From: an uncultured Bacillota bacterium
Lineage (GTDB): Bacteria > Bacillota > Clostridia > Christensenellales > UBA1242
Direction: 5' to 3'
Length of the DNA: 32,772 nucleotides
NCBI GenBank assembly: GCA_947088415.1
Contig: CAMUGK010000002.1
Location: 1 to 32,772 of the forward strand
Numbering within the stretch: position 1 is the stretch's first letter; every line of letters begins with the position of its first letter. Of this stretch, positions 3,390 through 30,445 are shown one piece after another. The notes beneath the pieces were generated by a model. The model saw only the letters and a list, made by a program, of their open reading frames with translations. It had not been told where the DNA came from and did no database searches. A program made the translations under genes and the position numbers.

Positions 3390-3400
3390 GGAGAAAAATT

Positions 3401-4860: not shown

Positions 4861-4869
4861 TGCTATAAT
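4861..4869 (+). promoter_or_regulatory. Extended -10 promoter element (TGcTATAAT) for the NACHT gene
   Basis: TGCTATAAT lies 18 nt upstream of the ATG at 4887. It follows an AAAAATC/GATTTTT hairpin located after the integrase stop codon. Confidence 0.45.
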
Positions 4870-4886
4870 TCAATTAGGAGAAGCAT

Positions 4887-8777: not shown

Positions 8778-8790
8778 CCAGCGTCTTTTT
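8764..8790 (+). terminator. Rho-independent terminator of the NACHT gene
   Basis: AAAAGACGCT (8765-8774) pairs with AGCGTCTTTT (8780-8789). The stop codon lies in the loop and a T-run follows. Confidence 0.7.
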
Positions 8791-8798
8791 GTGTAAAT

Positions 8799-8844
8799 TG
8801 GTGAGAGTAAGAAGATTTGAACTTCCGACCTGTCGCTTAGGAGG
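8799..8844 (-). pseudogene. Orphan 3' half of a tRNA-Arg(CCU): anticodon loop to CCA. Acts as an att junction.
   Basis: The reverse complement reads CCTCCTAAG-CGAC-AGGTC-GGAAG-TTCAAAT-CTTCT-TACTCTC-A-CCA. No matching 5' half is adjacent: the upstream sequence GGTGGCTAATTGCC cannot form the anticodon or D stems. Confidence 0.75.
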
Positions 8845-9090
8845 GGCAATTAGCCACCGAAGTCCTATTGAATAACTTTTGAAATACACATATCTATTTG
8901 TATTATCAATTAACTTTTCATAGTATAATACAAAATTTGTGCTTTTGTCAAAAACTTCAAATAACTTTTGTTCCATGAGTAGCATTTTTAGTATGGTATG
9001 AAAGTTATAAATGACTTACAAACCGTCTTTACTCTTTAACTTAAATAAAAATTAAAACATCAGGGTTGATGTTGAGTTAAGGAGATTAAA

Positions 9091-9963: not shown

Positions 9964-9986
9964 ACTGCCTTTTAAGAAGCATTGAT

Positions 9987-10013
9987 ATTTAATATAATAA
10001 ATTTATATTAAAT
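9987..10013. repeat. AT-rich 11-bp hairpin just downstream of rep, plus a nearby direct repeat CCTATTTGCA x2
   Basis: ATTTAATATAA (9987-9997) pairs with TTATATTAAAT (10003-10013). CCTATTTGCA occurs at 10036-10045 and 10070-10079. Confidence 0.4.
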
Positions 10014-10149
10014 AATTTATATCAGCCATTTTAGACCTATTTGCAGTGGCGAGAAAGTTTGTGACAGTCCCTATTTGCAAAATAATAGCCCCAAAGTTAT
10101 AATTTTTATATAAACTAAGAGCAAAGTGTGATATAATGCAAAGGGAGGC

Positions 10150-10974
10150 ATGAAAATGAAACAAATAAAAACTTCCATCTATTGGTTTATTTTAATTTGT
10201 AGTGTTTTAATGGCGGTTTTAATAACAATAGCAACTACTATGGGTTCAAATAATTTAATTATAGGACTTATTTCAGGTGTTTTTTCTAGTGCTATGGTTG
10301 TTTTGATTGACCTTTTTATAAAATATTTTATAAGTAAAAAAGAAACATTTCAAACTATTACAAATTCAGTTTATAATTTATTTTCACAAGTAATCTTATT
10401 TATTTCAAGTATAGAAGATTTTGGGTATAATGATTTTGAATTATGGTATGAAAATATCCAAAACAAACGAAAAGAATTACTAAAAAGTTCAAGGGACTTA
10501 ATAGATAACATTTGCGATGTTTACTGCTTTTTCAAAAAAGGATATAAACTTGTTGGAGAACTTTATCAACTTTTTTATACATTAGACTTCTATGAGTTAT
10601 TAGATTTCTCAAATAGCGAAATTACTTTGGAAATTCAAAATACTATAATAGAAATTGAAGACATGGACTTACTAAAATATAGAGATAAAATAAGGCTTAA
10701 AAACAAATTTGAAAAATTAAAAGATAATTATAAAAATCAATTAAAAGAAGGAATTAAAAAATTAAACGAATACCTTCATCCAGTAGAAAATATTTATAAA
10801 GATATGTGTAAAAAATATTTCAATGAAAGTATTTATAACAATGCTAAAAAGTTTTTGAATAATTTAGATTTTGAATTAAATGATAAAAAATTAAATTATG
10901 CCTTTAGAGAGATTTTTATAAAGCAAGATATTCAATTAAAATATTTGAGTAAAGATAAAAAAGACTTGCAGTAA
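10150..10974 (+). CDS. Membrane protein with two N-terminal TM helices and a helical cytoplasmic domain of about 200 aa
   Basis: TM segments IYWFILICSVLMAVLITIATTM and LIIGLISGVFSSAMVVLIDLFI. The ATG at 10156 has better spacing to GGAGG (10144-10148) than the ATG at 10150. A terminator hairpin is shared with the convergent XRE gene. Confidence 0.6.
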   Translation: MKMKQIKTSIYWFILICSVLMAVLITIATTMGSNNLIIGLISGVFSSAMVVLIDLFIKYFISKKETFQTITNSVYNLFSQVILFISSIEDFGYNDFELWYENIQNKRKELLKSSRDLIDNICDVYCFFKKGYKLVGELYQLFYTLDFYELLDFSNSEITLEIQNTIIEIEDMDLLKYRDKIRLKNKFEKLKDNYKNQLKEGIKKLNEYLHPVENIYKDMCKKYFNESIYNNAKKFLNNLDFELNDKKLNYAFREIFIKQDIQLKYLSKDKKDLQ

Positions 10975-11001
10975 TTTGCAGGTCTTTTGTTTTATTTGTT
11001 T

Positions 11002-11301
11002 TTAAGCAATGTAATAATAGCACTTTTTTTTATCAGGGCTGGCGGTTTTAAGTAAGTCTATAATCTCTTTGTCTTTGCGATATGCACTTATCTCATAATA
11101 AAAAAATTCAGAAACAGATGAATCACAAGCGTCTATAATTTCAAGCAGTGCTGAAACTGAAGGCTCAAAACTATCATTTTTAGACTCTAGACGGGAGATA
11201 TAGGCGGGATTTTTACCTATTTTCAAACTTAAATCACGAGCAGATAAACCTTTGTCTGACCTTAATCTACTTATACGAAAAATAACCTCTTTTTTATCCA
11301 T
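11002..11301 (-). CDS. XRE-family HTH transcriptional regulator
   Basis: LRSDKGLSARDLSLKIGKNPAYISRLESKN is a classic Cro/CI-type HTH. The gene is divergent from the operon at 11466-12944. Confidence 0.85.
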   Translation of the reverse strand: MDKKEVIFRISRLRSDKGLSARDLSLKIGKNPAYISRLESKNDSFEPSVSALLEIIDACDSSVSEFFYYEISAYRKDKEIIDLLKTASPDKKKCYYYIA

Positions 11302-11396
11302 AAATCCACCTCACAAATATACTAAAATTATAAATGATAAGCGGCTTTATGGCACTTTGCAACACTTGTAAAAATTACATAGTATGAAACTATTTT

Positions 11397-11445
11397 GCAC
11401 TTATAAGTGCATTTGTTTGCTTTTACATTCATTTTGTGCTATTAT
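11397..11445 (+). promoter_or_regulatory. Perfect 14-bp palindrome (candidate operator) abutting the operon promoter
   Basis: GCACTTATAAGTGC at 11397-11410. -35 TTGCTT at 11417-11422, a 17-nt spacer, and an extended -10 TGcTATTAT ending at 11445. Confidence 0.45.
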
Positions 11446-11465
11446 ACTTACATGAGAGGTGCAAA

Positions 11466-12302
11466 ATGAAAATTATTTTAAGTAAAAAGGGGTTAGACAG
11501 TAGCAACAGTGTTAAGCCTATAACTATTGATAATAAGCAAATGATATTTTTGCCTATTCCAAGTAATCAAGATTATGATAATGCAAGATATAGCGAAGTG
11601 TTTGAAAATAAAATATCATTGCTTTTCTATTGTATGGAAATGGGTATTGATTTTGGTTATATAGACAACAAAAAATTGCCAATGAATGGAACTACAAACT
11701 GCCATTTAGACCCACAACTTATAAATTATTTTGGTTATGATAATTTCAAAGGTAGTTTTGGGCAAGTGAAAGCCGCCCAGAAGCATTTAGAAAATAAACA
11801 AGTGCAAGCAGGCGATTTGTTTTTGTTTTATGGTTGGTATACCGATAATAAAACACATAAAGAAAAGCATACTCTTTTTGGCTATTTGCAGGTTGGAGAG
11901 ATTATAAAAGTTAATGAGTTGACTGCAAGCCAAAAGCAAAAAATAGTTGATAAATATCCTTGGCTACACCATCAACCTCATTGGTATAGCCAAGAAACAA
12001 ATAATACAATTTACATAGCAAGGGAAACCTGTTCATTTAATAAAAATATCAAAGGTTTTGGAATGTTTAAATATGATAAAGAATTAGACTTGACAGCAAA
12101 AGATATTGGCACAAAAACCTGCTGGGAAATTTCAGCATTGAAAAATTGTAAAGTATCTTTCAAAGACCATAATGGAAACGACAGTTTTAATGATTTGGGA
12201 CAATTTAGAGTTGCTGACCGCTGTCAAGAGATAGTTATTGAAGAGTGTCCGCAGGCTGAAAAGTGGGCTATAAACTTAATTAAAAAATATAAAAGGAGAT
12301 AA
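11466..12302 (+). CDS. Conserved-looking protein of unknown function (279 aa), possibly Nmad3-like
   Basis: The track ORF starts at a GTG (11436) inside the -10 box. The ATG at 11466 has GAGAGGTG upstream. The N-terminus MKIILSKKGLDSS..., CHLDPQL, FGQVKAAQKHL and GDLFLFYGWY resemble my recollection of Nmad3 (nucleotide-modification-associated domain 3) proteins. This is from memory and unverified. Confidence 0.6.
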   Translation: MKIILSKKGLDSSNSVKPITIDNKQMIFLPIPSNQDYDNARYSEVFENKISLLFYCMEMGIDFGYIDNKKLPMNGTTNCHLDPQLINYFGYDNFKGSFGQVKAAQKHLENKQVQAGDLFLFYGWYTDNKTHKEKHTLFGYLQVGEIIKVNELTASQKQKIVDKYPWLHHQPHWYSQETNNTIYIARETCSFNKNIKGFGMFKYDKELDLTAKDIGTKTCWEISALKNCKVSFKDHNGNDSFNDLGQFRVADRCQEIVIEECPQAEKWAINLIKKYKRR

Positions 12303-12304
12303 AA

Positions 12305-12625
12305 ATGAAAAACATAAGTTTAACAGTAGAATTCAAAAATCCAGAAAAAGAATTGCAAGAACAATTACAAAGAAATGGTGCAAGAAATATAAGCATAAGA
12401 AGAAATTTTGACGGCTGTCTTGAAGTGTCTTACAAAATTGTTTGTGCTGACCCACAAAAAGAAATTGAAAAAATGCTGTCATCATCTGGCGGACAAAGTG
12501 TTAGAAGTTCGTCAAGTTATAATGGTGCAAGATTTGATATGAAAATTGACGATCGTCTTGATGAAAGAGAGTTCAAAAAGCAAATTATAGACGCTCTCCG
12601 CAGAGCAGGTTTTAGAGCAAACTAA
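12305..12625 (+). CDS. Hypothetical protein (106 aa), closely coupled to the upstream gene
   Basis: The ATG lies 2 nt after the upstream TAA, with AGGAG inside the upstream 3' end. No motif recognised. Confidence 0.6.
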   Translation: MKNISLTVEFKNPEKELQEQLQRNGARNISIRRNFDGCLEVSYKIVCADPQKEIEKMLSSSGGQSVRSSSSYNGARFDMKIDDRLDEREFKKQIIDALRRAGFRAN

Positions 12626-12639
12626 AAACAACTAAAAAT

Positions 12640-12674
12640 AACCGTCTCCGTTATGATTAGTAGGAGGCGGTTTT
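12640..12674 (+). terminator. Terminator-like hairpin whose 3' arm contains the RBS of the next ORF
   Basis: AACCGTCTCC (12640-12649) pairs with GGAGGCGGTT (12663-12672), with one G-T pair. TTTT follows, then the ATG at 12675. Confidence 0.5.
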
Positions 12675-12944
12675 ATGTTTTTAGAAATTTACGATAAGTT
12701 TGACAAAAAGTTAGGAGATGTTTTTGTTAGTGAAGATGGCCATATGTCTTTATGTTTTGACAATAAAAATAATTTGCTAGGCAGAATTGTTGGAGATGAG
12801 AAAGTTTTATTTGCCTTTGATGAAGATGATAGGTATTTAGGAAGATATGATAGTCTTTATACTTACGATAGGCATGACAACTTGTTAAAAAGGGGTAATT
12901 TAATATATAACATGTTTTATCTCACCATTAAACACATTAGATAG
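12675..12944 (+). CDS. Small repeat-containing protein (89 aa), possibly 4-fold beta-flower-like
   Basis: Internal repeats: DNKNNLLGRIVGDE, DEDDRYLGRYDS and DRHDNLLKRGN. The family name is recalled from memory only. Confidence 0.5.
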   Translation: MFLEIYDKFDKKLGDVFVSEDGHMSLCFDNKNNLLGRIVGDEKVLFAFDEDDRYLGRYDSLYTYDRHDNLLKRGNLIYNMFYLTIKHIR

Positions 12945-13323
12945 CCCTGCAAGTGCCTGCAAATGGCGTGAGAACAGGCAAAAGAGTTTTTATCGGTAAA
13001 TCGACCATGAAAATATAAAAAGCCATACAAAAGGCTAAATAATAGGAAAAGTCCGCAAACAGAAAGCGGTCTTTTTTTATGCTATTTTTTATCTTAAAAC
13101 CATGACATGGTAAAACATCGCTTCAATAACCCCTGTCGTGTGAAGTCATATGTAAACAACGAGTTGGGATAGAGCAAAAAATCACTATAGTCCTGTGTGC
13201 ACATTAAAAGCACACGAAAATTTACGGGATTTTTCGGGAAATACGGCAAAATGGTTGCCTTCTCTGCCTGCATCGGCTTTAATGAGTTCTAACTCGAAAA
13301 ACTCCCATTACAAAAGGAGGTAA

Positions 13324-13518
13324 ATGGTTATGTATAGGACGATAGAGCAAGCCTATGCTTACTTAAAAGAACTTGACCCTAACACAGCACTAACAAAATA
13401 TTATTTGAGAGTTTTGTGTCAAACAAACCAAATCACAGTGCTTAATATAGGCTCAAAGTTTTTAATCCAACTTGAAAGTTTATGCGACTTTCTAAAAATC
13501 AAATTATGTGAAAACTAA
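13324..13518 (+). CDS. Excisionase-like HTH protein
   Basis: Homologous to the ORF at 3171..3389 and located upstream of the integrase. The ATG at 13330 has better spacing to GGAGG (13316-13320) than the ATG at 13324. Confidence 0.6.
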   Translation: MVMYRTIEQAYAYLKELDPNTALTKYYLRVLCQTNQITVLNIGSKFLIQLESLCDFLKIKLCEN

Positions 13519-13536
13519 AAATATAAGGAGTAAAAA

Positions 13537-13953
13537 ATGGAAATCAAAAATTTAGGAAAGTATGTAAGTGTGTTAGACAATGGCTTAATGCAAATGATTG
13601 GAGAAAAACCTATTGAATATACACTACATGCTCAATTTAGAAGCACAGTCACAGGTGCGATAACAAGATTTGAAAAAGTTGTAAAAAATACAAAAGAATT
13701 TGAAGGAAAAGAACTTAAAGAGTTTTTATATTCAAACCTTCAAGAATTTATTAAAGAACGAGAGTTTAGGTTTATATATAACTTTATACCTTATGAGTCA
13801 GCGGAATATGAATTCCCTAACAAAAAAGGCAAGGTAAAGACATGGAAAGCAAAAGTGTTTTATAGTGAAAGCGAAAAAGAAAGTCATAAAATGTTTTTGA
13901 AATTAGCACAAGCAAGAGAAGAACAAAAGTTAAGAAAAAAAGGAGTAATGTAA
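13537..13953 (+). CDS. Hypothetical protein (138 aa)
   Basis: AAGGAG RBS. The stop codon lies 1 nt before the integrase ATG. No motif recognised. Confidence 0.6.
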   Translation: MEIKNLGKYVSVLDNGLMQMIGEKPIEYTLHAQFRSTVTGAITRFEKVVKNTKEFEGKELKEFLYSNLQEFIKEREFRFIYNFIPYESAEYEFPNKKGKVKTWKAKVFYSESEKESHKMFLKLAQAREEQKLRKKGVM

Positions 13954-13954
13954 A

Positions 13955-15376
13955 ATGGCAACATATGAGAAAAGAACAGCAAAGAAGGACGGTCATATCA
14001 CATATGGCATACAAATCAAAGTTAAGGACTATTTGGGTAGAGATAAATTTGTAAACACTACTTGGAAAAACCCTAACAACCTTACAGGCGAAAGAGCAAA
14101 AAAGGCTGCGATTGCTTTTGGTGAAACATGGGAAGCAGAATATAAAAACGGTCATACCCATAAGTTAAGCAATGCAAGTTTTAATCAAGTAGCAAATGAG
14201 TGGCTACGAAATGTTAAACACAGAGTATCATTAAACTATATTTTACGATCGGAAGATTGTATTAAAAGAATGACCGAATACTTTGGAGATGTAAGATTTG
14301 TAGATTTAAGGGCTCATGAAATCCAACAATTTATCACATACCTAAACGAATATACTTACAAAACTATAACCGCAAAAGTAAAAGAATATAAACTTGATGA
14401 GTTTAAGGAAAGTATAAAAGCAAATGGCGGTGCGAGAAAGGCAGAGAGAGATGGAATAATATCACGCCCTGTGTTTTACTATGCTACACATGGAGAACCT
14501 ATTGCATATAGCAGTGCCGAGAAAATTTGTAATTTATTAAAAATAAGTATAAAAGAATTTTTTGAAAAGATTGTAGTTGAAAAAGGTTATGCAAAAGAGA
14601 CAATACTAAAATATCAACACACATTAAGTGCAATTTTCAATTATGCAATCAAAAATGAGTTAGTGACTTCAAATTATGCTTCAAGTGTTTACACAAAAGA
14701 TAGCATAGGCGGAAGAAAAACCGAAGAAGCCAAAATATTAACTAACCAAGAATATGACAAATTATTAGAAACTTTGAAACTTGCGGACAACAAGTTAGAC
14801 AACAAAGGACAACCACTTAATCTTATTTGGGAAACTATACCTTTGTATGTTATGACCCAATTAGGACTTAGAACTGCCGAAGTGTGCGGTCTTAAATGGG
14901 AAGATATAGATTTAGATGAAAGAGTTTTGAGTGTATGCAGAGATAGAGTTTACACTCCAAAATATGGTGTTTATGATAGAGATACAAAAACTGCTAAATC
15001 AACAAGAAAATTATTTATAAGTGATTTGTTAGCCGAAAAATTACAATTATTCAAAGATAAATATGAAGAACTTAAAAAAGCCGATAAAAAGTTTGATAAA
15101 AGAGGCTATATCTTTTGTAATGTTGATGGCACACCAAAGTTCCCACAATATCTTAACTATTTACTACAAAAATATCTTTTAGAAGCAAATGTCACAGTTG
15201 TATCAAATCATAAGATACGACACACATGGATAACAAGACTTATCACAAATGGTGCACCTGTAAACGGAGTTGCACAAATGGCAGGTCATGCCGACAAAAA
15301 TACAACATTAAAGATATACACTCACTTTTCAAAAGATGTTAAGGCATCACAAGAATTGTTGACAAAATATTTGTAA
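13955..15376 (+). CDS. int: Tyrosine recombinase / integrase
   Basis: GLRTAEVCGLKWEDID, HKIRHTWIT, AGHADKNTTLKIYTH. Same architecture as the integrase at 3401..4792, including the shared segment ISRxxF..AT.G......AEKIC. Confidence 0.9.
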   Translation: MATYEKRTAKKDGHITYGIQIKVKDYLGRDKFVNTTWKNPNNLTGERAKKAAIAFGETWEAEYKNGHTHKLSNASFNQVANEWLRNVKHRVSLNYILRSEDCIKRMTEYFGDVRFVDLRAHEIQQFITYLNEYTYKTITAKVKEYKLDEFKESIKANGGARKAERDGIISRPVFYYATHGEPIAYSSAEKICNLLKISIKEFFEKIVVEKGYAKETILKYQHTLSAIFNYAIKNELVTSNYASSVYTKDSIGGRKTEEAKILTNQEYDKLLETLKLADNKLDNKGQPLNLIWETIPLYVMTQLGLRTAEVCGLKWEDIDLDERVLSVCRDRVYTPKYGVYDRDTKTAKSTRKLFISDLLAEKLQLFKDKYEELKKADKKFDKRGYIFCNVDGTPKFPQYLNYLLQKYLLEANVTVVSNHKIRHTWITRLITNGAPVNGVAQMAGHADKNTTLKIYTHFSKDVKASQELLTKYL

Positions 15377-15410
15377 TGTTATTGAGACACACAAAAACTT
15401 AATAAAATAA

Positions 15411-15443
15411 AATGCTAGGTGCGAATACTCGTATCCTAGCATT
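15411..15443. terminator. Bidirectional terminator hairpin between the integrase and the HEPN gene
   Basis: AATGCTAGG (15411-15419) pairs with CCTAGCATT (15435-15443). Confidence 0.6.
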
Positions 15444-15465
15444 GATAATGTTTCGACATGAATTA

Positions 15466-16116
15466 TTATGGTCTTTTTATTGATTGAAGAATAGAAACTA
15501 ATTTTTCAGTATCTAAACTTTTTCTAGTAAGATAGCCAAGTTGATAATCTTCAAACAATATATCTATTGAATTGCCAAAAGTATTATGACAAGAACTAAT
15601 TTTGTCATGCCCTAGCAATTCAAACATATTGTTCATTAAGTCGAAGATATTTTCAAGTAAAGCAATTATTTTTGCAGAGTCTAATTTTAAGAGAAATATG
15701 TCTGAGTTTGCATTTCGCAGTTTTTTATCAAAATGTGCTAAATAATTATCTCTAAATGTTCTTAATTTTGACAACTCATCTTTATTGTCGCTTATCAGAG
15801 TGTCAATATTTTTAGCAAGTTCTTTTAGTTTTAGGTCGTTTTGTTTATCTAGAATTTTATTTGAATTTATAAAGTTTGAAACACTTTGAATAGATAAGGA
15901 ATCAGGGTCGCCATCAAATAATTTAGCAGCAGTTAACATAGATTGTTCTTTTAATGAATGAGAAATATGTCCTAAGTCATTTTTTAGAATGCCATAAGAC
16001 GACTTATCTATTTCATACCAATCGTTTATTCTTTCATTCAAGTAATAGTTGTTTTGGACTTCACTAATTTTAGAATGTAAAAATTTAAGTGTTTTAGTCA
16101 AAATATCAGAATTCAT
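15466..16116 (-). CDS. HEPN-domain protein, AbiU2-like abortive-infection candidate
   Basis: The internal ATG at 16116 has AGGTGA upstream. The track start at 16149 lacks an RBS. An Rx4-6H motif, RDNYLAH, lies at nt 15733-15753 within LRTFRDNYLAHFD. The protein is all-alpha and Leu/Asn/Lys-rich. Confidence 0.6.
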   Translation of the reverse strand: MNSDILTKTLKFLHSKISEVQNNYYLNERINDWYEIDKSSYGILKNDLGHISHSLKEQSMLTAAKLFDGDPDSLSIQSVSNFINSNKILDKQNDLKLKELAKNIDTLISDNKDELSKLRTFRDNYLAHFDKKLRNANSDIFLLKLDSAKIIALLENIFDLMNNMFELLGHDKISSCHNTFGNSIDILFEDYQLGYLTRKSLDTEKLVSILQSIKRP

Positions 16117-16162
16117 TATCACCTCACAAAATAAAAAGTATCTAGCCAAATAGATACTTAAA

Positions 16163-20136: not shown

Positions 20137-20256
20137 ATGAAAAAGAAGAAAAATGAGAAAAAGATATTTAAAAGTAAAAATGACCCGCTTGGTTCTTATA
20201 CAGGAATTGGACTTATTGAAAATCAAGAACCTGTTCAGGATGCCGACGATTTATAA
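20137..20256 (+). CDS. Possible 39-aa ORF below the track cutoff
   Basis: Reads MKKKKNEKKIFKSKNDPLGSYTGIGLIENQEPVQDADDL. There is no clear RBS. Its 3' end overlaps the cwlD stop codon by 6 nt. Confidence 0.3.
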   Translation: MKKKKNEKKIFKSKNDPLGSYTGIGLIENQEPVQDADDL

Positions 20257-20943
20257 AAACTTCATGATTCCGCCAAGGACTGCAAAACAAAGTTTTTTCA
20301 TATAAGATTCTTGTTGTAAAAGTTTTTCTTCATCTGGATTAGACAAAAAACCAAACTCAACCAAAATTGCAGGCTTGTCAGTGCAATTTAACACGAAGAA
20401 GTCGCCAACAGACGGCAGTGTTTTTGAATTTTTGTTTGCTTCATAAAGCGAAGTTTGCACCTCACCTGCAAAAGTTTTACCAAGCTCATTGCCTTTTGCA
20501 TAATAAACCTGAGCACCTTTGCAAGAAGATAATCTAAAACTATTCATATGAATGCTGACAACAAGGTCGGCGTTAGAACCTTCAATAATGCTTTTGCGTT
20601 TTTCCATTTCACTTTTCTTTTTGTTAGGGGCAGAAGGGGAATATAATCCGTTCTCATTATTTCTTGTCATAACAACCCTAAAACCCATATCTTGACATTG
20701 GGCTTGCAGACATTTTGCAAAAGCAAGATTAAGGTCACTTTCTTTAACACCTGTAATTTTACCTTCTGCACCACCATCAATTCCGCCATGCCCCGCATCA
20801 ATCACAATGGTGTGAAGTGGCTTTGGCGTCGTGCTGGCTTTGATTGGAAAATAGGTCGCACAAAACGCACCAATTGCTAGAAAGCACAACAAAATGGCAA
20901 AAATTGTCTTTTTCTTAATTGTTAAAAATGTAGTTTTCATCAA
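20251..20943 (-). CDS. cwlD: N-acetylmuramoyl-L-alanine amidase (Amidase_3), CwlD-like germination-specific amidase
   Basis: N-terminal TM segment. VIDAGHGGIDGGA, VMTR, EKRKSIIEGSNADLVVSIHMNS, GAQVYY and VEFGFLSNPDE are colinear with Bacillus CwlD as I recall it. Confidence 0.75.
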   Translation of the reverse strand: MMKTTFLTIKKKTIFAILLCFLAIGAFCATYFPIKASTTPKPLHTIVIDAGHGGIDGGAEGKITGVKESDLNLAFAKCLQAQCQDMGFRVVMTRNNENGLYSPSAPNKKKSEMEKRKSIIEGSNADLVVSIHMNSFRLSSCKGAQVYYAKGNELGKTFAGEVQTSLYEANKNSKTLPSVGDFFVLNCTDKPAILVEFGFLSNPDEEKLLQQESYMKKLCFAVLGGIMKFL

Positions 20944-21057: not shown

Positions 21058-21798
21058 ATGAAAATGATTAAAAGTGAACAATTACTTTCACTTTTCTCTC
21101 AAGACGAAGAAGTCTATTACGAAGAAGAAAAGCGAAAGAAGAAACAAAAACTTGTGCGTAACGAGTTTGAAAAATGTGGAAAATACGGAATGCCACTGAT
21201 TAAGAAACAAAAAATTGATTTAGATAAGATTGAGCTTCTGGGTTATATAAAAACAAAATCAAACGACGAAGAAAATAAAAACAAAACCATACATTTCTTC
21301 ACTTATGATTGGAATTTCAATAATGTCTATGAAAAACCAGAGCAAGCACTTGAAAAACTTGACCAATACTATGCCCTACTCACACCAGAGTTCAGCACTT
21401 ACAAAGACATGCCTCTTGCGAGACAAATTGACAGTGTTTTTAAAAATCGCTGGTGCGGTGCATTTTGGCAGAAACAAGGTATGCTGGTCATTCCTACAAT
21501 TTCATGGGGCTCTTATGGTTGTTTTGATTTCTTTTGTGATGGTGTTGAAGAAGGCTCTGTTGTGGCAGTTTCAACTTATACAAGAGAAGATAATAAAAAA
21601 GGCTTCATGGAAGGGTATGAAATTATGATGCAAAAAATTAAACCAAGTGCAATAATTTGCTATGGCACCCCTTTTGAAGAAATGAAGGGAAATATAAAAG
21701 CAATTGACCCTTTTAATAGTGAAGAACTTATCAAAAAAATTGGCCTTGCCGAGTTTATGAAAAAGAAACTTGCCAGCGAACTTTATCCAGAAATTTAG
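21058..21798 (+). CDS. DUF4417-like protein
   Basis: The track start (TTG at 20995) coincides with a -35 box: TTGAAA, 17 nt, TATAAC at 21018-21023. The real start is the ATG at 21058 or 21064, after AAAGGAG. Motifs HFFTYDWNF, LLTPEFSTYKDMP, NRWCGAFWQKQG and VIPTISW match my recollection of DUF4417. Confidence 0.55.
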   Translation: MKMIKSEQLLSLFSQDEEVYYEEEKRKKKQKLVRNEFEKCGKYGMPLIKKQKIDLDKIELLGYIKTKSNDEENKNKTIHFFTYDWNFNNVYEKPEQALEKLDQYYALLTPEFSTYKDMPLARQIDSVFKNRWCGAFWQKQGMLVIPTISWGSYGCFDFFCDGVEEGSVVAVSTYTREDNKKGFMEGYEIMMQKIKPSAIICYGTPFEEMKGNIKAIDPFNSEELIKKIGLAEFMKKKLASELYPEI

Positions 21799-21807: not shown

Positions 21808-22626
21808 ATGGAAGAATTCAAACTTACAATCAATATGCTCCCAAAAGGAGCATGGGGAAGCGATTTTAGTAAAACCTTGTCTAAGAAAGATTGGGAAAAA
21901 TTGCGAGATTATGCATTAAAACGAGCAAAAGGAAAATGTGAAATATGTGGATTTGTAACAGATGCCCTTGATGTACATGAAGAATGGGTTTTTGATACAA
22001 AAAATAAAACACAAACTTTAAAATATATCAAGGCAATTTGCTCTCGTTGTCATGGTGTTAAACATTTCAAAAATTCAGTTAGGCTTGGCTTTGGAGAAGA
22101 TGCAGAAAAGCATTTTATGAAAGTCAACAATGCTTCTGAGATGCAGTTTGCTTCTCACTTAAATAAGACTTTACTTGAATATGAAGAGAGAAACAAAACT
22201 CATCGCTGGAAAATAGTTGCGGATTTAGAAACGTTTGGTGGCAAAGGAATTGAAATAAAGCAAAACAATATTCCTCTTATTAAAAACCCTTATGAAAATA
22301 TAAATTGGGATAGTCTGTCATACGAAGATACAAAACATTTATTTAATATCACAAGAAATGATAATTTGATAGGAGCACCAAAAATTGTTTCTATTGAAGT
22401 AAATAACTATCAAGGCGAAATTAAAATTAAATCGCTGTTTGCCGACAGAATCGAGTGGTTTTTAGATAAAATAAAGATAAAAACAACATACCACACTGCT
22501 GGACTATTCAAAACGGAATTCAAAGTAAAAAATTTGATTGGAAAAAAATTAAATTTCAAACTTATTGGAATTGGCGGCAAAACAATTTCAAAACCATTTG
22601 AACTTTTGCCACAGGAGGTGTTATAA
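21808..22626 (+). CDS. Protein with an N-terminal HNH/zinc-finger-like domain and an unknown C-terminal domain
   Basis: CEICG...LDVHEEW...AICSRCHGVKH has the pattern CxxC...HE...CxxCHxxxH. The stop codon overlaps the next ATG as TAATG. Confidence 0.55.
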   Translation: MEEFKLTINMLPKGAWGSDFSKTLSKKDWEKLRDYALKRAKGKCEICGFVTDALDVHEEWVFDTKNKTQTLKYIKAICSRCHGVKHFKNSVRLGFGEDAEKHFMKVNNASEMQFASHLNKTLLEYEERNKTHRWKIVADLETFGGKGIEIKQNNIPLIKNPYENINWDSLSYEDTKHLFNITRNDNLIGAPKIVSIEVNNYQGEIKIKSLFADRIEWFLDKIKIKTTYHTAGLFKTEFKVKNLIGKKLNFKLIGIGGKTISKPFELLPQEVL

Positions 22627-22916
22627 TGGGAATGTGTAAACCAAGTGGTGGGAAATTTGATGTTTATGGACCTTATAAACATTCTTTAAAAAAGGATGGT
22701 ATACCAAATACTAGATTAGACTACTACGACGAGCAAACAGACGAATTACTACAACAACGCTGGTATGGTCCAGATGGACTTGCAATTTGGGATAGGGATT
22801 GGAAACATAACAATCCAAATGGTAATCATAAATTCCCGCATGATCATCCTTGGGATTGGTCTAAGAAAATTCCAAGACAAGATTTTATTAATAATATTAA
22901 TAATAGTTATTGTTAA
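22626..22916 (+). CDS. Small His/Trp-rich protein (96 aa), translationally coupled. Toxin-like candidate.
   Basis: TAATG overlap with the upstream gene, with AGGAGGTG 8 nt upstream. Motifs TRLDYYDE...RWYGPDG (YD-like) and FPHDHPWDW. Confidence 0.55.
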   Translation: MGMCKPSGGKFDVYGPYKHSLKKDGIPNTRLDYYDEQTDELLQQRWYGPDGLAIWDRDWKHNNPNGNHKFPHDHPWDWSKKIPRQDFINNINNSYC

Positions 22917-22930
22917 AAAAGGAGGAAAAT

Positions 22931-23383
22931 ATGAAAAAAAACTTATTAGAAAAAAATATACAAAAAAAATGTGCTGTTTGCAAAAAAGTTTATTTGACAT
23001 CAGAATTGGACTTAACTCCATGTCCATATTGTGGATGGTATAACGATTCTATGTGTGAGGAGAATCCTGACAAAGTTATATATCGCAACCTTATTTCTTT
23101 TAATAAGGCTAAGCAATTCTATTCAGATAGGAAGCCTTTAAAGCCCGACTTAATTGATTTTCTTGAAGCATTTGAATTTTATGGAGAAACGGGTTTTGAA
23201 TATAATAATATTGACTTTGCTTTGTTTAGACATAGAGAATATGGTATTGAAATGAGTTGGAGTCCAGAGCCAAATGGCACAATTTATTTCAAAGACAAAG
23301 ACGACTTTATACAAAATGCAAAGATAGGCAATGAATTTATTCGAGAAATATGGGACAAAGTTGACGATCCAAGATATTTATAA
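22931..23383 (+). CDS. CPCC-family cysteine-rich protein (immunity-like candidate)
   Basis: The ATG at 22931 follows AAGGAGG. CAVC...CPYCGWYND..EENPD...NLISFNKAKQFY matches the CPCC family pattern as I recall it. Confidence 0.6.
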   Translation: MKKNLLEKNIQKKCAVCKKVYLTSELDLTPCPYCGWYNDSMCEENPDKVIYRNLISFNKAKQFYSDRKPLKPDLIDFLEAFEFYGETGFEYNNIDFALFRHREYGIEMSWSPEPNGTIYFKDKDDFIQNAKIGNEFIREIWDKVDDPRYL

Positions 23384-23511
23384 GATAAGAAATAATAAGC
23401 GGACAAGTAAGTTCGCTTTTTTATTTTATGATACAAAATTTATTAAAACATATATAGGCCTCGCGAAACAATTTCAAAAACCTTTGAACTTATGCTGCAG
23501 AAGGTGCTATA

Positions 23512-23801
23512 ATGGGAATGTGTAAACCAAGTGGTGGGATAAGCAACCAAACTGGACGAGTAGGATCTTTGCCAAGAATATGGTTGCCAAATACAAGGAT
23601 AGATTTGTATGATGAAAAGGAAATTTGTTGCAACAAGGATGGTATGGACCAGATGGCAGAATTATTTGGTATCGTGACTGGTCACATGGTGGAGGATATC
23701 ATGATTGGCCACACGACCACTATGTTAATTGGGATAATCCCAAAGACCCTAGACCACTTTATATAGGTCCAAATGGTGAAAAAAACTCGGATTTTTGTTG
23801 A
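23512..23801 (+). pseudogene. Frameshifted paralogue of the ORF at 22626..22916
   Basis: Same start, MGMCKPSGG. Homology continues in another frame after nt 23613-23619 (…GNLLQQGWYGPDGRIIWYRDWSH…PHDHYVNWD…, stop at 23799-23801). One extra A in the A4 run at 23615-23618 would restore the frame. Confidence 0.6.
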
Positions 23802-24268
23802 AAGGAGAATTATATGAATATAGAAAAAAATACAAAAAATCATGTGAAGTATGTCAAAAAGAAATTTATGTAGATATTTATAAACAAGGGAAATGTCCTT
23901 ATTGTGGTTGGTGGAATTGTTTTTTAAATGAAGAAAATCCTGATGAAGTAGCATTACCTAACACTCTTTCTCTAAATAAGGCACGACAACTTTACAAAGA
24001 AAAAAGGCCATTTGAACCAGACTTTGACGATTTTATTAAAGCTCTGTATAGTTACGGTGAAATGCAATTTGAATACAATGGGACATATTATGCAGTTGAA
24101 TTTGTAGGAAGAAGCAAAAATAATTTTGATATTCAGCTTTATAATTCAAAGTCACGAGAAAAGTTTCTATTTAAAACAAAAGAAGATTTTAAAAATAATG
24201 CCAAGGTTGAAGGAAAACTATTAAAAGAAATCTGGGATGAAACGACTGATAGATATTGGCTACAATAA
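23795..24268 (+). CDS. Second CPCC-family paralogue. Its RBS-linked ATG is out of frame.
   Basis: CEVC...CPYCGWWN..EENPDE...SLNKARQLY. The RBS AAAGGAG (23801-23807) serves the ATG at 23814, which is in the +1 frame relative to the ORF. One extra A in the A7 run at 23824-23830 would join them. Confidence 0.5.
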   Translation: MLKGELYEYRKKYKKSCEVCQKEIYVDIYKQGKCPYCGWWNCFLNEENPDEVALPNTLSLNKARQLYKEKRPFEPDFDDFIKALYSYGEMQFEYNGTYYAVEFVGRSKNNFDIQLYNSKSREKFLFKTKEDFKNNAKVEGKLLKEIWDETTDRYWLQ

Positions 24269-24312
24269 TAGATAAAAGGTGCACTGTTTAAGGTGCATCT
24301 TTTTCTCTTAAT

Positions 24313-24420
24313 TTAAAAAACATACTGTCCTTTCTTGACATCAGCCCCGCCATGCCCCGCATCAATTACGATTGTGTGCAAAGGTTTGGGCGTTGCACTT
24401 GTTTTAAAACATAATTGAAT
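24313..24420 (-). pseudogene. Relic of the 5' part of a cwlD-like amidase gene
   Basis: The reverse complement encodes …LCFKTSATPKPLHTIVIDAGHGGAD…. cwlD has …KASTTPKPLHTIVIDAGHGGID…. There is no start codon and a stop occurs soon after. Twenty identical nucleotides are shared between 24347-24366 and 20783-20802. Confidence 0.6.
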
Positions 24421-24947: not shown

Positions 24948-26147
24948 TTAAATACCTTTAACACCTTCAATGCGAGTTATGAGATATTTAGGGTTGTCTG
25001 TTGCAAAAGCAATAGTATTTGTTGTTGTGTCAAAAGTGTAAGTAAAGCCACGGCTTATAGCAACGCGTTTTTGTGAATAATATAAAATTCCTTTAAGATA
25101 ATGCACAGTTTTTCCATTTGTGGAAAGTGAACTCATTACAAAATCATTTTTTGGTCGGTTGGCAGTTGGCAATTCTATAAAAGAATAAAGGCTGTTTAGG
25201 GTGGCAAATATGCGAATATAGTCATATTCACTATCTGTCCAATACACATTATTACCAGTAGGAATGCCAGTAGTAAAGCCTTTGTTGATTGCTTCATCTG
25301 TGCTTTTCATGTCGTAGATAACTTCAATTGCTCTTCCTCCGCCAGAAGAAGGTCTATTTTCGACAGCACTAACTCTTGAAGCCAAACTTTCAATATTTAA
25401 TTTGTTGTTTCTAATGCTTTCGGTATGGTCTTGCAAATCTGCCGCCTGAAGTTGAATTTGTGAATGGTTGTCACTTATGTCATAAGTCATGTTGGTAAGT
25501 TTTGTTTGATATGCTGAAAGGGTGTTGTTTATTGAGCCAACCGAAGTGCTTAAAGAAGAAACATTGCCTTTTATAATAGTTATTTCGTCGGCATTTGCTT
25601 TAATCCTGTCGTCAAACCCATTAATTGCAGTGTTCAAAAAGGCGATATCTTCTTCATGTTTGACCGCTTTGTTTGAAATAGTTGAAATATTGGTTTCGTT
25701 TGTTTCAACCTTTTGAGAAAGTGCTGAAATGTTGGCTTGATTAGAATTTGTTTTATTTGAAATGGTAGAAATATCACTTTCATTTTTGCTAACTTTTGTT
25801 GTCAAGTTTGAAATGTTGTTTTCACTGTTTTCGACTTTTTCAGATAAAGATGTTATATTGTTTTGATTTGTTTCCACCTTACCAGAAAGGGTTTGCAAAT
25901 TCTCGTTTAATGTTGAAGACTCACTTTCAACCGAGTTTAAGTTGGTTTTTATTGTTTGAATTTCGCTTTCAAGACTCTCAACTTTATTTTGACAATCGGT
26001 TATTTTCTTTTCAAGTTCTTGAAGTTGACCTTTATTTCCACCACCTAAAATTTCATCTTTTAAACTTGGCAATGTATGCTTAATCAAATACCAAAGTTCC
26101 TTTTCTAATTTAGATAGTTTTTCTTGCAATTCTTCTTGCGTGTTCAT
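24948..26147 (-). CDS. Coiled-coil protein with 14-residue repeats and a globular C-terminal domain (phage tail-fibre-like)
   Basis: Repeats LSGKVETNQNNITS, LSEKVENSENNISN, LTTKVSKNESDIST, ISNKTNSNQANISA and LSQKVETNETNIST. An SSGGG hinge and a C-terminal domain of about 130 aa follow. No signal peptide. AGGAGG RBS. Confidence 0.6.
   Translation of the reverse strand: MNTQEELQEKLSKLEKELWYLIKHTLPSLKDEILGGGNKGQLQELEKKITDCQNKVESLESEIQTIKTNLNSVESESSTLNENLQTLSGKVETNQNNITSLSEKVENSENNISNLTTKVSKNESDISTISNKTNSNQANISALSQKVETNETNISTISNKAVKHEEDIAFLNTAINGFDDRIKANADEITIIKGNVSSLSTSVGSINNTLSAYQTKLTNMTYDISDNHSQIQLQAADLQDHTESIRNNKLNIESLASRVSAVENRPSSGGGRAIEVIYDMKSTDEAINKGFTTGIPTGNNVYWTDSEYDYIRIFATLNSLYSFIELPTANRPKNDFVMSSLSTNGKTVHYLKGILYYSQKRVAISRGFTYTFDTTTNTIAFATDNPKYLITRIEGVKGI
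25638..25889. repeat. 42-nt periodic tandem repeats encoding the 14-residue units
   Basis: On the plus strand, TGAAAT(A/G)TTG recurs every 42 nt. Confidence 0.6.
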
Positions 26148-26224: not shown

Positions 26225-26863
26225 CTAAACTGATTTCTTTTTCTTTTTTGTTTTTTTCATGAACAACAACAATAAAATAATTGTCACGCAAGATGCGGCT
26301 ACAACAATTCCAGTTATAACACCTGCGTTAATTCCGTATGGAGATAACTCTTGTGTCTTAATATAACCATAAATCAACTTTCCATTTTCTCCAACAAAAC
26401 AAACTGCAGTCATATCATTTTGTTTGTTGTATCCTTGATATAGATAAAGCTCCTTGCCTTTATTTAATTTAGCAATAATTTTTGTTTGGTCAAGGTCATA
26501 GACCTGACAGCCATCAATTTCAACACTTGCATTGAATACTGGATAAACCTCTTGCGACAAAATGTTAAATGTGATATATCTTGCATAAACATATCCTTGC
26601 ATTTCTTTATATTCAACTTTAATAAAATTATCATTTTCTTCTTCAAGCACTTTCAACTTTTCGCCATGAGCAATTGTGACAGGCTCATTGTTTTGATTTA
26701 AAATAGGCTTTTCAAAATTGCCTTCTTCAAAAAGTTTAACTTCGTTTGCAATGACCATAACTTCGCCAAGGTCAGCAAAAACATAACCGCTATTAAATTG
26801 TAGTGGCAAAAATATTGCAAAGCACATTAACAAGCACAAAACCCCGATAAAAATTTTTCTCAT
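26225..26863 (-). CDS. Secreted protein with SH3b-like domains, a C-terminal TM anchor and a poly-Lys tail
   Basis: Signal peptide MRKIFIGVLCLLMCFAIF. GYVYARYI and GYIKTQEL are SH3b-like strands. C-terminal ITGIVVAASCVTIILLLLFMKKTKKKKK. Confidence 0.55.
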   Translation of the reverse strand: MRKIFIGVLCLLMCFAIFLPLQFNSGYVFADLGEVMVIANEVKLFEEGNFEKPILNQNNEPVTIAHGEKLKVLEEENDNFIKVEYKEMQGYVYARYITFNILSQEVYPVFNASVEIDGCQVYDLDQTKIIAKLNKGKELYLYQGYNKQNDMTAVCFVGENGKLIYGYIKTQELSPYGINAGVITGIVVAASCVTIILLLLFMKKTKKKKKSV

Positions 26864-28574: not shown

Positions 28575-30398
28575 CTAGATGTTTTCGGCAAGGAACATGG
28601 CTTTAAACTTGTCATTGCGTTCAAACAACTCATCAAAAGTTCCGCTGTCTGCAATCTTTCCTTCGTCAAGAAAGAAAATCTTGTCCACATTCTTAATTGT
28701 CGAGAGTCTGTGCGCAACAATAACAATCGTGCTTTTTCCCTTAAGCCCGTCAATACTTTTTTTGACTTCTTCTTGTGCAAAATTGTCTAGCGAACTTGTG
28801 CTTTCGTCAAATATTATGATAGGGGAATTGCGAAGCATAGCGCGTGCAATGGCAAGACGTTGCTTTTGTCCACCAGAAAGTTTTATTCCGCTTTCTCCAA
28901 CCTTGGTGTCTATGCCTTGTGGTAAGCTGGAGATGAAATCTTCTAAAGAAGCTTTTTTGATTGCATCAGCCAATTCTTTGTCACTTGCGTCGCCTTTGGC
29001 TAAGAGGAGATTCTCTTTGATAGACATGTCAAATATGTATGGAAATTGATTGACAAGCGAAATAGTTTTTCTTATTGTTTCTTTGCTTAAATCGTTGATG
29101 TTGACCTTGTCAATCAAAACCTTTCCACTGTCAACTTCATACATTTTGGACATAAGATTGAGTATTGTAGACTTTCCACTTCCACTTTTGCCTACAAAAG
29201 CGACAGTTGTGTTAGGCGTAATCTCAAATGAAAGCCTGTCGAAGATTTTGTTCTCGCTGACAATCTTTTTGCTTGAAATCCCCCCCCCGCACTTTTTCTT
29301 TTGTAATTTTTTAAGTTCGCTTAATGAATTGATTTCTGGAAATTCATATTCCTTAAAAGTGTATGATACCTTGTCAAACTTGATATGCCCTTTAACGTTT
29401 TTAAATTCTTTTTGACCAAATTTTTCGGTTACAAACTCGTCTTCGTCAAAAAGTGAAAACATACGCCTGTGTGAAACTTTAATATCTACAATAGTGTTTG
29501 AAATTTGACCAACCCCAAAAATTAAATCCCAAAGTGAACCACGATTTGAATAGATAATCATATAGGTTGCAATGGTCATTGTTCCAAGGTCCATAAGATA
29601 AATGCCAAGAAGCAAAACTAAAAGCGTTCCAATGTTGACAATAAAGTTTCTAAGCGACCAAAAATTTGTGTCAGTCATATCCATTTTGTATCTTGAAGTT
29701 CGATAATCTTCATACTTTTGCTTAGAAACTTGGGCAAGTTGACTTTCAAGACCAAGAGATTTAATGTCTTTTTCACTGCGAACAATCTCGGTTGTAAGCG
29801 AGTGAACTTTGTCGTTTTTGCGTCTAACTACAAATCTATTTTTTCTTCGAACTTTAAGTCTAAAATATTCCAATACAAATCCGATAATAAATAATCCAAA
29901 GAAACATAGCGAAGCCCAAATGTTAAGAGTTGCAACATAGATGAACATAACAAGTGCAGTAGCAACATTCATAAGTGTGTCAACAAGCCCAGATAATTGG
30001 TCAATAATTCTTGCAGGGTCTTCAACAATACGTTGAACAAAAGTGCCTGTGTCATGGTCGTTGTAAGTTTTAGAGTTTAATTTGAATGCCTGCTTTGCAA
30101 GGTCAAGGCTGAGTTCCGACATTATTCTATTGGAATATTTGTAATATATTCTGTTAATTAAATACCAACATAATTTTTGAAATACTGCAAGTCCTATACC
30201 AAATAAAGCATAGGTAAATGCTTTTTGAAATTCAGGGTTTTCTGCTGTTAAAAATGCAATAGTTTCGGCAAATATGATTGTTAAAAAGATATCTGCAATG
30301 CAGCCAAGTGCATAGAGAAATATGTAAGCAAAAATCCAAAATTTATAATTCTTTAGATATAAACCTATATTAGGTTTTTTAACTTTATTTTTTGTCAT
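28575..30398 (-). CDS. ABC exporter, fused permease and ATPase (MsbA/MdlB-like)
   Basis: The ATG at 30398 has GGAGG 5 nt upstream. Six hydrophobic segments. Walker A GKSGSGKST, signature LSGGQKQR, Walker B IIIFDESTS. Confidence 0.85.
   Translation of the reverse strand: MTKNKVKKPNIGLYLKNYKFWIFAYIFLYALGCIADIFLTIIFAETIAFLTAENPEFQKAFTYALFGIGLAVFQKLCWYLINRIYYKYSNRIMSELSLDLAKQAFKLNSKTYNDHDTGTFVQRIVEDPARIIDQLSGLVDTLMNVATALVMFIYVATLNIWASLCFFGLFIIGFVLEYFRLKVRRKNRFVVRRKNDKVHSLTTEIVRSEKDIKSLGLESQLAQVSKQKYEDYRTSRYKMDMTDTNFWSLRNFIVNIGTLLVLLLGIYLMDLGTMTIATYMIIYSNRGSLWDLIFGVGQISNTIVDIKVSHRRMFSLFDEDEFVTEKFGQKEFKNVKGHIKFDKVSYTFKEYEFPEINSLSELKKLQKKKCGGGISSKKIVSENKIFDRLSFEITPNTTVAFVGKSGSGKSTILNLMSKMYEVDSGKVLIDKVNINDLSKETIRKTISLVNQFPYIFDMSIKENLLLAKGDASDKELADAIKKASLEDFISSLPQGIDTKVGESGIKLSGGQKQRLAIARAMLRNSPIIIFDESTSSLDNFAQEEVKKSIDGLKGKSTIVIVAHRLSTIKNVDKIFFLDEGKIADSGTFDELFERNDKFKAMFLAENI
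29280..29288. repeat. C9 homopolymer (G9 on the coding strand) inside the ABC gene
   Basis: Encodes the GGG of KKCGGGISSKK. This lies in an apparent insert between the TMD and the NBD. Confidence 0.8.
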
Positions 30399-30445
30399 AA
30401 AAACCTCCATTAATGTATTTTCAATCCGCTGTTATCAATTATAGC

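Follow-up and report, generated by a model that had tools for sequence, protein, structure and literature searches.

Rhs and CdiA (contact-dependent inhibition) loci are polymorphic toxin systems in which a constant region is followed, across a sharp boundary, by a variable toxin (PMC3482391). The immunity gene lies directly downstream, surplus immunity genes occur, displaced orphan cassettes retain a stub of the constant region, and recombination at the conserved junction exchanges cassettes. Here we describe a locus with these same features in a 32,772-nt stretch of DNA from an uncultured bacterium of the Christensenellales (GenBank assembly GCA_947088415.1, contig CAMUGK010000002.1, forward strand, positions 1 to 32,772; the whole stretch is referred to below as the window). 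The locus encodes a DUF4417 protein, a 272-amino-acid (aa) HNH nuclease (HNH272), a 96-aa small protein and a CPCC protein, and a diverged copy of the last two genes follows. We consider it likely that two toxin-immunity-type cassettes stand here in tandem, joined to the 3′ end of the HNH-nuclease gene. Unlike the constant region of Rhs and CdiA loci, that of the present locus consists of the end of the HNH gene plus nine codons, and its orphan cassettes keep a ribosome-binding site (RBS), a start codon and a promoter-like motif of their own. In colicins E and pyocins S, one toxin family and one immunity family co-diversify into cognate types, as we propose here; the present locus, in contrast, has neither a lysis gene nor domains for receptor binding or translocation and is a tandem array with a repeated junction. 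Two small adjacent genes would also fit a type II toxin-antitoxin system, of which surplus arrays of CPCC genes are atypical. In such a system the toxin acts inside the cell and is countered by a labile antitoxin protein, which as a rule represses its own operon by means of a DNA-binding domain.

The features of the array are as follows.

21064-21798, plus strand: DUF4417 gene, first of the four-gene module (Pfam PF14386, E = 2.4e-49)
21808-22626, plus strand: HNH endonuclease-like gene, 272 aa (PHROG 5200 HNH endonuclease, E = 2.4e-25)
22577-22653, plus strand: junction copy 1 (repeat search)
22626-22916, plus strand: small gene 1, 96 aa, predicted Ntox24-like toxin domain (family alignment, toxin contexts, AlphaFold2 [AF2] model)
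22931-23383, plus strand: CPCC gene 1, 150 aa, putative immunity protein or antitoxin (Pfam PF14206; profile match to PDB 8EY3/8EY4_I)
23397-23418, plus strand: terminator-like hairpin and T-run after cassette 1
23463-23539, plus strand: junction copy 2, comprising an orphaned stub from the 3′ end of the HNH gene (23463-23511), Shine-Dalgarno sequence, promoter-like motif and leader codons
23512-23801, plus strand: small gene 2, a pseudogene in the window (one base missing near 23618/23619)
23814-24268, plus strand: CPCC gene 2, a pseudogene in the window (frame lost in the A7 run 23824-23830)
24274-24303, plus strand: terminator-like hairpin after cassette 2

Each cassette is preceded by one copy of a single direct-repeat family of 77 nt (22577-22653 and 23463-23539; 90% identity), the last 32 nt of which, TATAATGGGAATGTGTAAACCAAGTGGTGGGA, are identical (22622-22653 and 23508-23539). 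An exact 32-mer repeated within 900 nt is far beyond chance. An earlier note on this DNA, made from its letters alone, had described an identical leader of 31 nt at 22620-22651 and 23506-23537; the leader is real, but it is 32 nt long and those coordinates are 2 nt too low. The preceding 45 nt are similar, as the note had said, with about 8 mismatches and thus roughly 82% identity instead of some 85%. Two further claims of the note proved accurate. An orphan peptide is encoded in copy 2, where the HNH frame gives ETISKTFELMLQKVL and then a stop codon, the C-terminal end of the 272-aa protein itself being KTISKPFELLPQEVL; and the gene pairs downstream are homologous yet diverged, the CPCC proteins being 37% identical and the small reading frames about 50%.

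The junction extends over about 75 nt (−48 to +27), takes in the final ~16 HNH codons and the first nine codons of the small gene (MGMCKPSGG), and includes the Shine-Dalgarno sequence GGAGGTG and a TAATG overlap of stop and start codons. Both copies also contain a promoter-like motif, TTGAAC-18-TATAAT with a TG extension (22598-22627 and 23484-23513), which is embedded in the last HNH codons such that its −10 box overlaps the ATG of the small gene. Transcription from this motif would begin close to the second ATG (Met3). Two loci that have no HNH gene, L024 and L057, also keep the motif.

We compared the window with 81 related loci (L numbers), 73 of them from a one-genome-per-species collection and 8 from metagenome contigs, giving 82 sequences in all; 31 further metagenome contigs were used for leader-bearing open reading frames (ORFs). 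Nearly all of the 73 species-representative loci are labelled uncultured Clostridia, Eubacteriales or Christensenella/Christensenellales, with few other labels. The junction was found in 93 copies across the 82 sequences, with a full HNH gene upstream in 52 copies and stubs of 11 to 130 codons in 39, and the TAATG overlap was kept in 89 of the 93. Nucleotide conservation among these copies lies at 90 to 99% between about −30 and +26 and declines to ~50% from +27 onward, past codon 9. Upstream of about −50, the primary copies remain ~75 to 80% conserved because this region codes for HNH, whereas the orphan copies drop to ~45 to 50%. Copies of the untranslated stub resemble one another more closely within a genome (identity 0.91) than across genomes (0.84; permutation P = 0.0005), which does not hold for leader codons 1 to 9 (P = 0.15).

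The leader peptide MGMCKPSGG is kept, with synonymous variation, even in L011 and L012, which lack both the HNH stub and the TATAAT box. This weakens leaderless translation from Met3, on transcripts of the junction promoter, as the cause of the invariant MGM. A double-glycine leader of the bacteriocin type was also considered and rejected, MGMCKPSGG being too short for one; the ABC transporter of the window (28575-30410) has no match to a C39 peptidase and is not adjacent to the cassettes. The exact leader pattern did not occur in the IMG/VR viral contigs, so there was no sign of a phage-borne leader.

The comparison among loci also revealed where cassettes are exchanged. L001 and L009 share, at ~100% identity, a block of ~900 nt that starts at −46 and extends as far as the leader of the cassette behind it, with a synonymous divergence (dS) of 0 for both the small and the CPCC gene, whereas the adjacent HNH genes have a dS of 0.78 and the following cassette is 45 to 75% identical; both breakpoints lie inside junction repeats. 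The converse case is L033 versus L053, in which the HNH proteins are 94% identical and the small proteins 48%. Here the DNA is 90 to 100% identical up to −11 and ~50% identical through the small gene, L053 carries an extra CPCC gene, and identity returns to 98 to 100% exactly at the resident CPCC gene. The toxin gene was thus replaced, a new CPCC gene came with it, and the old CPCC gene was retained.

Exchange is not confined to these two pairs. There are 17 pairs of loci in which the HNH proteins are at least 85% identical and the small proteins at most 55%, and orphan types in some genomes are primary types elsewhere (L036 versus L061, 94%; L057 versus L053, 99%). Identity matrices of the small proteins (leader excluded) and the CPCC proteins are strongly correlated, with r = 0.72 over all pairs (Mantel P = 0.001) and r = 0.75 among primaries; the correlation of either with the adjacent HNH gene is only ≈0.19, and the partial correlation of small and CPCC proteins controlling for HNH is 0.74. 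Within a cassette type, the ratio of nonsynonymous to synonymous substitution rates (dN/dS) is 0.10 for the small gene, 0.14 for the CPCC gene and 0.13 for HNH, orphan-orphan comparisons included, which implies that orphans are generally maintained as functional genes. With dN/dS at ~0.1 to 0.14, gene-wide positive selection on either the toxin or the immunity gene was not seen.

Cassette exchange at a conserved junction, which the earlier note had proposed, is thus borne out by the breakpoints in the junction repeats of L001 and L009 and by the near-identical backbones with differing cassettes of L033 and L053; the cross-strain comparison of cassette number and order that it had put forward as a check showed that the number varies between loci. 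The junction is both the constant/variable boundary and the place of the exchange breakpoints, and cassettes move as units of toxin plus CPCC. Support was likewise gained for the note's view that a small gene with a start codon of its own is what is swapped. The diversity is allelic, lying inside one toxin family and one immunity family.

What the small protein might be was apparent from its relatives. There are ~100 stand-alone homologues of about 75 to 113 aa (nearly all 80 to 113), none with a Pfam domain. At the N-terminus of this family, M1, G2, M3, C4 and S7 are invariant and K5, P6, G8 and G9 are nearly so; a motif QQRWYGPDG...DRDW.H......H.FPHDH.W and a nearly invariant C-terminal Cys follow. 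Leader Cys4 and the C-terminal Cys (Y/F-C) mostly co-occur, and where the MGMC leader is missing, the last residues are NLYF or FNFY, with no Cys; the exceptions are L097 and L101, which have the leader and lack the terminal Cys. It is possible that the paired cysteines form a disulfide or a metal site or share a docking function.

A profile search with the small protein against 1.8 billion representatives returned 592 matching proteins. Among the best matches, its core (residues ~15 to 88) lies at or near the C-terminus of larger proteins that carry RHS repeats or Fil_haemagg_2, LXG, PT-HINT, PT-TG, DUF4280 or DUF637 domains. In five RHS-type proteins the small-protein domain directly precedes, or overlaps, a Tox-WTIP match, and Ntox24 is matched weakly by 4 of 73 relatives, at an E value of 1e-4 or weaker. 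A search of structures in BFVD gave three phage proteins (E = 3e-5 to 4e-4), one of them a "minor capsid protein" of 406 aa. In Paenibacillus phage Fern, a 676-aa "toxin," FERN_26, carries the same domain at its C-terminus behind the PT-TG pre-toxin domain; this toxin is 42% identical to the small protein over residues 8 to 80 (E = 7e-11), and the homology accounts for the match of the small protein to the PHROG 18811 "toxin." The Fern gene is likewise followed by a small ORF; unlike the small protein, however, the phage protein is a fusion, and its downstream 73-aa ORF has no CPCC domain. MuF-type polymorphic toxins of phages are a related class for comparison with the Fern-type toxin.

The AF2 model of the small protein (pLDDT 82.8) is all-beta, with conserved residues Y47, H68, H72 and H74. 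Ntox24 (PF15529) was described by Zhang et al. in 2012 (PMC3482391) as an all-beta domain with conserved Y, H and H that may be an RNase, and it was listed there with export by type V secretion, type VII secretion (LXG) and MuF systems, with HINT, RHS and FilH contexts, and in toxin-antitoxin systems as well. The small protein thus resembles Ntox24 in its fold class, in its conserved Tyr and His residues, in the LXG, RHS, FilH and HINT contexts of its relatives and in standing alone beside an uncharacterised partner. It differs in that the window protein stays short of the Pfam model, in that the MGMCKPSGG leader and C-terminal Cys are specific to the subfamily of the window, and in that the immunity families listed for Ntox24 are Imm50 and Imm53 and not CPCC. 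On balance, we conclude from these homologies that the small protein is a putative stand-alone member of an Ntox24-like polymorphic-toxin domain family. It would accordingly be toxic and, by analogy with Ntox24, is probably a nuclease, possibly an RNase.

The CPCC partner belongs to a poorly characterised family. Copy 1 matches Pfam Cys_rich_CPCC (PF14206; cut-off, 24.5 bits) at 27.4 bits and copy 2 falls slightly under the cut-off at 22.7. The protein has an N-terminal zinc ribbon, whose four cysteines (C14, C17, C31 and C34) are invariant in the family alignment, then a motif E..PD.VI..NL.S.NKA and a C-terminal domain of ~85 aa that has a hypervariable centre and is PHROG 3711-like; a Pfam search detected no DNA-binding domain. 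In its N-domain, a profile of the family matches PDB 8EY3 and chain I of 8EY4 (E = 8e-4), each a "Cys_rich_CPCC domain-containing protein" of 65 to 70 aa, with which it shares the four-Cys ribbon CxxC...CPxCGW, the ...PD....N..SLN.AK motif and a toxin-gene neighbour. These Escherichia coli proteins consist of the CPCC domain only, whereas the proteins described here are ~150 aa long and have the extra C-terminal domain. Chain A of 8EY4 is termed an E. coli toxin-immunity protein in the only paper that we found mentioning the entry (PMC13068155). The small-protein profile gave only a chance match to PDB sequences (E = 0.2), so the 8EY4 partner toxin is not detectably related to it.

A CPCC gene lies directly downstream of 86 of 90 small genes, and the three small genes without an intact CPCC gene are each truncated or interrupted by a stop codon. 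CPCC genes outnumber small genes in 16 of 74 loci, to the point that five CPCC matches follow one small gene in L015. We infer that the CPCC partner is an immunity protein that would neutralise its cognate toxin. The toxin/immunity-like nature of the pair, suspected in the earlier note, is thus supported by the homology of the small protein to polymorphic-toxin C-termini and by the adjacency, co-variation and 8EY4 match of the CPCC protein.

In the mechanism that we propose, a cassette would consist of the ~75-nt junction, the variable rest of the ~96-aa toxin, its cognate CPCC zinc-ribbon protein and a terminator. Because the junction is repeated before every cassette, it could serve as a homology arm, and recombination at it, either within a genome or with incoming DNA, would replace, add or displace whole units of toxin plus immunity gene. 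Displaced cassettes would remain downstream as orphans with an HNH stub, and old immunity genes would often be retained. The orphans would still be expressible because the stub, as its sequence implies, supplies them with an RBS and a start codon and, probably, with a promoter. The surplus of immunity genes points to action on neighbours, and the lack of an export signal points to an intracellular role as an addiction or exclusion module.

If correct, this would make for an unusual design, with a free-standing, translationally coupled small gene, an HNH tail as recombination handle and a two-domain CPCC immunity protein. The sources that we searched describe neither a tie of this kind to HNH and DUF4417 nor a CPCC partner extended by a C-terminal domain, and they mention no invariant nine-residue leader that goes with a C-terminal Cys and no self-sufficient orphans. 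A branch of the poorly characterised CPCC family would gain a role, DUF4417 would be tied to conflict systems through its fusions in other genomes, and the dozens of alleles, of ~100 and ~150 aa, would constitute a natural set of cognate toxin and immunity types for studies of specificity. The locus occurs almost entirely in abundant, uncultured gut Clostridia, in which strain competition and mobile elements are almost unknown.

Several observations weigh against a toxin-immunity array of this kind. The presumed toxin is a separate 96-aa ORF, with no large exported scaffold and no trafficking or secretion domain such as polymorphic toxins have; we saw no signal peptide in it (by eye, no predictor being run) and no secretion system linked to the locus. 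Polymorphic toxin loci place unrelated folds on one scaffold, whereas there is a single toxin and a single immunity family here, the same toxin family being present in every complete leader-bearing ORF of the 82 sequences and 31 metagenome contigs. A Pfam search (E ≤ 0.1) gave no match of the window small protein to a toxin model, and a fold search of the PDB gave no significant neighbour, the best being a glycosyltransferase subdomain at E = 0.13 that we judged not to be meaningful. Conservation of the junction could be explained by strong purifying selection alone, and the fusions of CPCC to DUF4417 described below hint at a role for CPCC beyond binding of the small protein. Finally, the proteins that follow two fused relatives of the toxin, in L082 and L083, are unrelated to CPCC, which implies that the CPCC pairing is lineage specific.

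Those two proteins, of ~125 aa (L082 4302-4679 and L083 4327-4707), lie after two unrelated fused toxins, one of the LXG type. The two have 34% identity and an SSYGLNGW motif in common, and no Pfam family matches either; they may represent an immunity family of their own, not yet described, that serves this toxin domain.

The small and CPCC proteins might instead be subunits of a four-component DUF4417-HNH system with a mobile-element, anti-phage or anti-defence function, in which the small protein would act as effector or cofactor and the CPCC protein would work with DUF4417. We regard this as unlikely; it is also compatible with a toxin-immunity array, the two not being exclusive. All four families do occur together in nearly all loci, and CPCC is fused to DUF4417 in both orders, as a 370-aa CPCC-DUF4417 protein in L001 (2787-3899, minus strand; similar proteins in L042 and L061) and as a DUF4417-CPCC protein of ~400 aa in L055 (2831-4051, plus strand) and L078 (4243-5439, plus strand), which suggests that the two domains may act together. 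DUF4417 is enriched in phages and often fused to ParB-like domains (10.1101/2025.10.10.680097), and fragments of an amidase gene flank the module in a way that suggests insertion. Small-CPCC pairs nevertheless adjoin the amidase gene without DUF4417 or HNH in L024 and L057, cassettes are exchanged independently of the DUF4417-HNH backbone, and the surplus CPCC genes and the broken, partner-less small genes fit a toxin and its immunity protein. None of the four module proteins matched a defence model of PADLOC-DB v2 at E ≤ 0.01. The literature search found no functional study of DUF4417 or CPCC.

As to DUF4417 itself, its ORF opens at TTG 20995, whereas homologues begin at the equivalent of ATG 21064. 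It matches the PHROG 940 "nuclease" (E = 2e-52), its homologues in L001 and L005 are 84 to 87% identical, and neither the single sequence nor a profile found relatives among PDB sequences. In L055 and L078, the DUF4417-CPCC fusion follows a homologue of the small toxin that lacks the MGMC leader, and in L078 it adjoins a 683-aa protein that we read as a coupling-protein-like ATPase. Some genomes have a second, divergent module that consists of a 111-aa protein, a CPCC-DUF4417 fusion and a 258-aa HNH paralogue (HNH258; for L001, the coordinates of this module are 2003-2779 and 3912-4247, both on the minus strand).

A quite improbable alternative is that HNH272 and the small protein are the two halves of one polymorphic toxin, the 272-aa carrier binding the leader, for example through an Ig-like domain, and the junction being conserved for the sake of that interaction. 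HNH272 has an N-terminal HNH domain, CxxC...H...CxxCH, and 318 homologues of ~270 aa; in its AF2 model (pLDDT 91.8) this domain is followed by a C-terminal immunoglobulin (Ig)-like beta-sandwich, for which a PDB fold search gave weak FnIII/Ig-like matches only, and PDB sequences yielded nothing significant. Besides the beta-sandwich, the near-universal TAATG overlap would be accounted for in this way, as would the fact that the HNH C-terminal tail and the small-protein N-terminus are the most conserved parts of the two proteins. The same is true of HNH258 (50% identity to HNH272), which is without the conserved tail and is not followed by a small gene. Orphan cassettes and cassettes without HNH are, however, kept under purifying selection, and secretion signals are lacking, HNH272 having no secretion-related Pfam domain. 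A programmed frameshift that would fuse the two proteins was rejected: the small ORF, which lies in the −1 frame, is open only from 22602, and there is no slippery X XXY YYZ site.

In situ tandem duplication followed by divergence, with the junction held by purifying selection on its peptide, RBS and internal promoter and playing no part in recombination, is very unlikely, since it would explain the retention of MGMCKPSGG without stub or TATAAT (L011 and L012), the promoter-like motif and Shine-Dalgarno sequence in the stub, the purifying selection on orphans and the leader codons that are no more alike within genomes (P = 0.15), but not the sharp identity breakpoints exactly at junctions in two genome pairs, a cassette dS of ~0 against an HNH dS of 0.78, the decoupling of cassette and backbone similarity or the homogenisation of the untranslated stub within genomes.

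Returning to the proposed toxin-immunity array, we can place its module relative to the amidase gene, which lies intact on the left and as a decayed fragment on the right.

20251-20943, minus strand: Amidase_3 (N-acetylmuramoyl-L-alanine amidase) gene (Pfam PF01520, E = 2.3e-41)
24340-24405, minus strand: remnant of the N-terminal region of the amidase (TPKPLHTIVIDAGHGG), to the right of the array (tblastn and blastn)

The amidase gene is the conserved left neighbour of the four-gene module and is divergently oriented; a minus-strand amidase match precedes the module in many of the 81 related loci. The remnant on the right is 86% identical to amidase residues 35 to 56 by tblastn and matches in 44 of 55 nt by blastn, and the similarity ends directly past the conserved GHGG codons. 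These flanks suggest that the DUF4417-HNH module was inserted into, or rearranged around, the 5′ end of the amidase gene. Flanking amidase fragments of this kind (residues ~6 to 56), sometimes in several copies, are seen in many genomes, among them L029, L032, L042, L045, L048, L053, L056, L067, L068, L076 and L081.

That the whole DUF4417-HNH-toxin-immunity module is a self-mobilising unit is a long shot. HNH, perhaps with DUF4417, would cut conserved DNA and so bring about homing-like insertion and conversion of cassettes; one candidate target would be the junction and another the GHGG codons of the amidase gene, fragments of which lie on the flanks of the module, and the toxin/CPCC pair would be addiction and exclusion cargo. 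Any role of HNH272 as a carrier or adaptor, or of its nuclease activity in recombination, is speculative. A self-mobilising unit, if real, would amount to nuclease-driven diversification of toxin-immunity cassettes.

Cassette 2 of the window is an orphan newly inactivated by one frameshift in each gene, while cassette 1 is intact. In small gene 2 (ATG 23512), the frame is lost near 23618/23619 and resumes as an ORF at 23625-23801; CPCC gene 2, whose ATG (23814) stands behind a good Shine-Dalgarno sequence, goes out of frame in an A7 run (23824-23830) that is A8 elsewhere. Contigs from two independent public faecal-metagenome runs, X1 and X2, have an extra base at both sites and therefore intact genes, the base in the small gene restoring DLYDENGNLLQQGWYGPDG and that in the CPCC gene being an extra A behind 23823. 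A contig from a mouse-gut run, X4, has the same small-gene frameshift as the window. The lesions are thus real strain-level variants, because X4 shares one of them and the alleles of X1 and X2 are intact, and assembly errors were set aside on the same grounds, one frameshift being shared by an independent run and intact alleles being present in two others. Intact close relatives of small gene 2 include that of L103, and the CPCC gene 2 product is 59% identical to the second-cassette CPCC protein of L001. X1, X2 and X4 also have an in-frame AAA insertion (an extra Lys) in the A7 run 23779-23785 near the end of small gene 2, which together with the A7/A8 difference implies that the homopolymer tracts of cassette 2 vary in length between strains.

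Contigs derived from metatranscriptomes were sparse, at a depth of 2 to 5, and possibly include DNA. Two are continuous over the junction from HNH to the small gene (X13, 22328-22701; X7, 22552-22702), as would be expected if cassette 1 were co-transcribed with the HNH gene. One stops at 23411, inside the first terminator, and contigs of run X16 cross the terminator into cassette 2.

The window as a whole has a G+C content of ~30%, contains a YabQ sporulation gene and has integrative elements upstream of the locus. The upstream region (206-16149) has the appearance of nested integrative elements or a defence island, with a primase/helicase gene (206-2242), tyrosine integrase genes (3401-4792 and 13955-15376), a Rep-like gene (9091-9963), a 1,296-aa ORF without a Pfam match (4887-8777), an Nmad3 gene (11436-12302) and a gene for an AbiU2 HEPN protein (15466-16149, minus strand). 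Downstream of the array lie genes for a 399-aa coiled-coil protein with a globular C-terminus (24948-26147, minus strand) and an SH3-domain membrane protein (26225-26863, minus strand). L005 has a 455-aa coiled-coil ORF. L001 and L005 have SH3-type proteins that are 41% identical to each other, in another arrangement.

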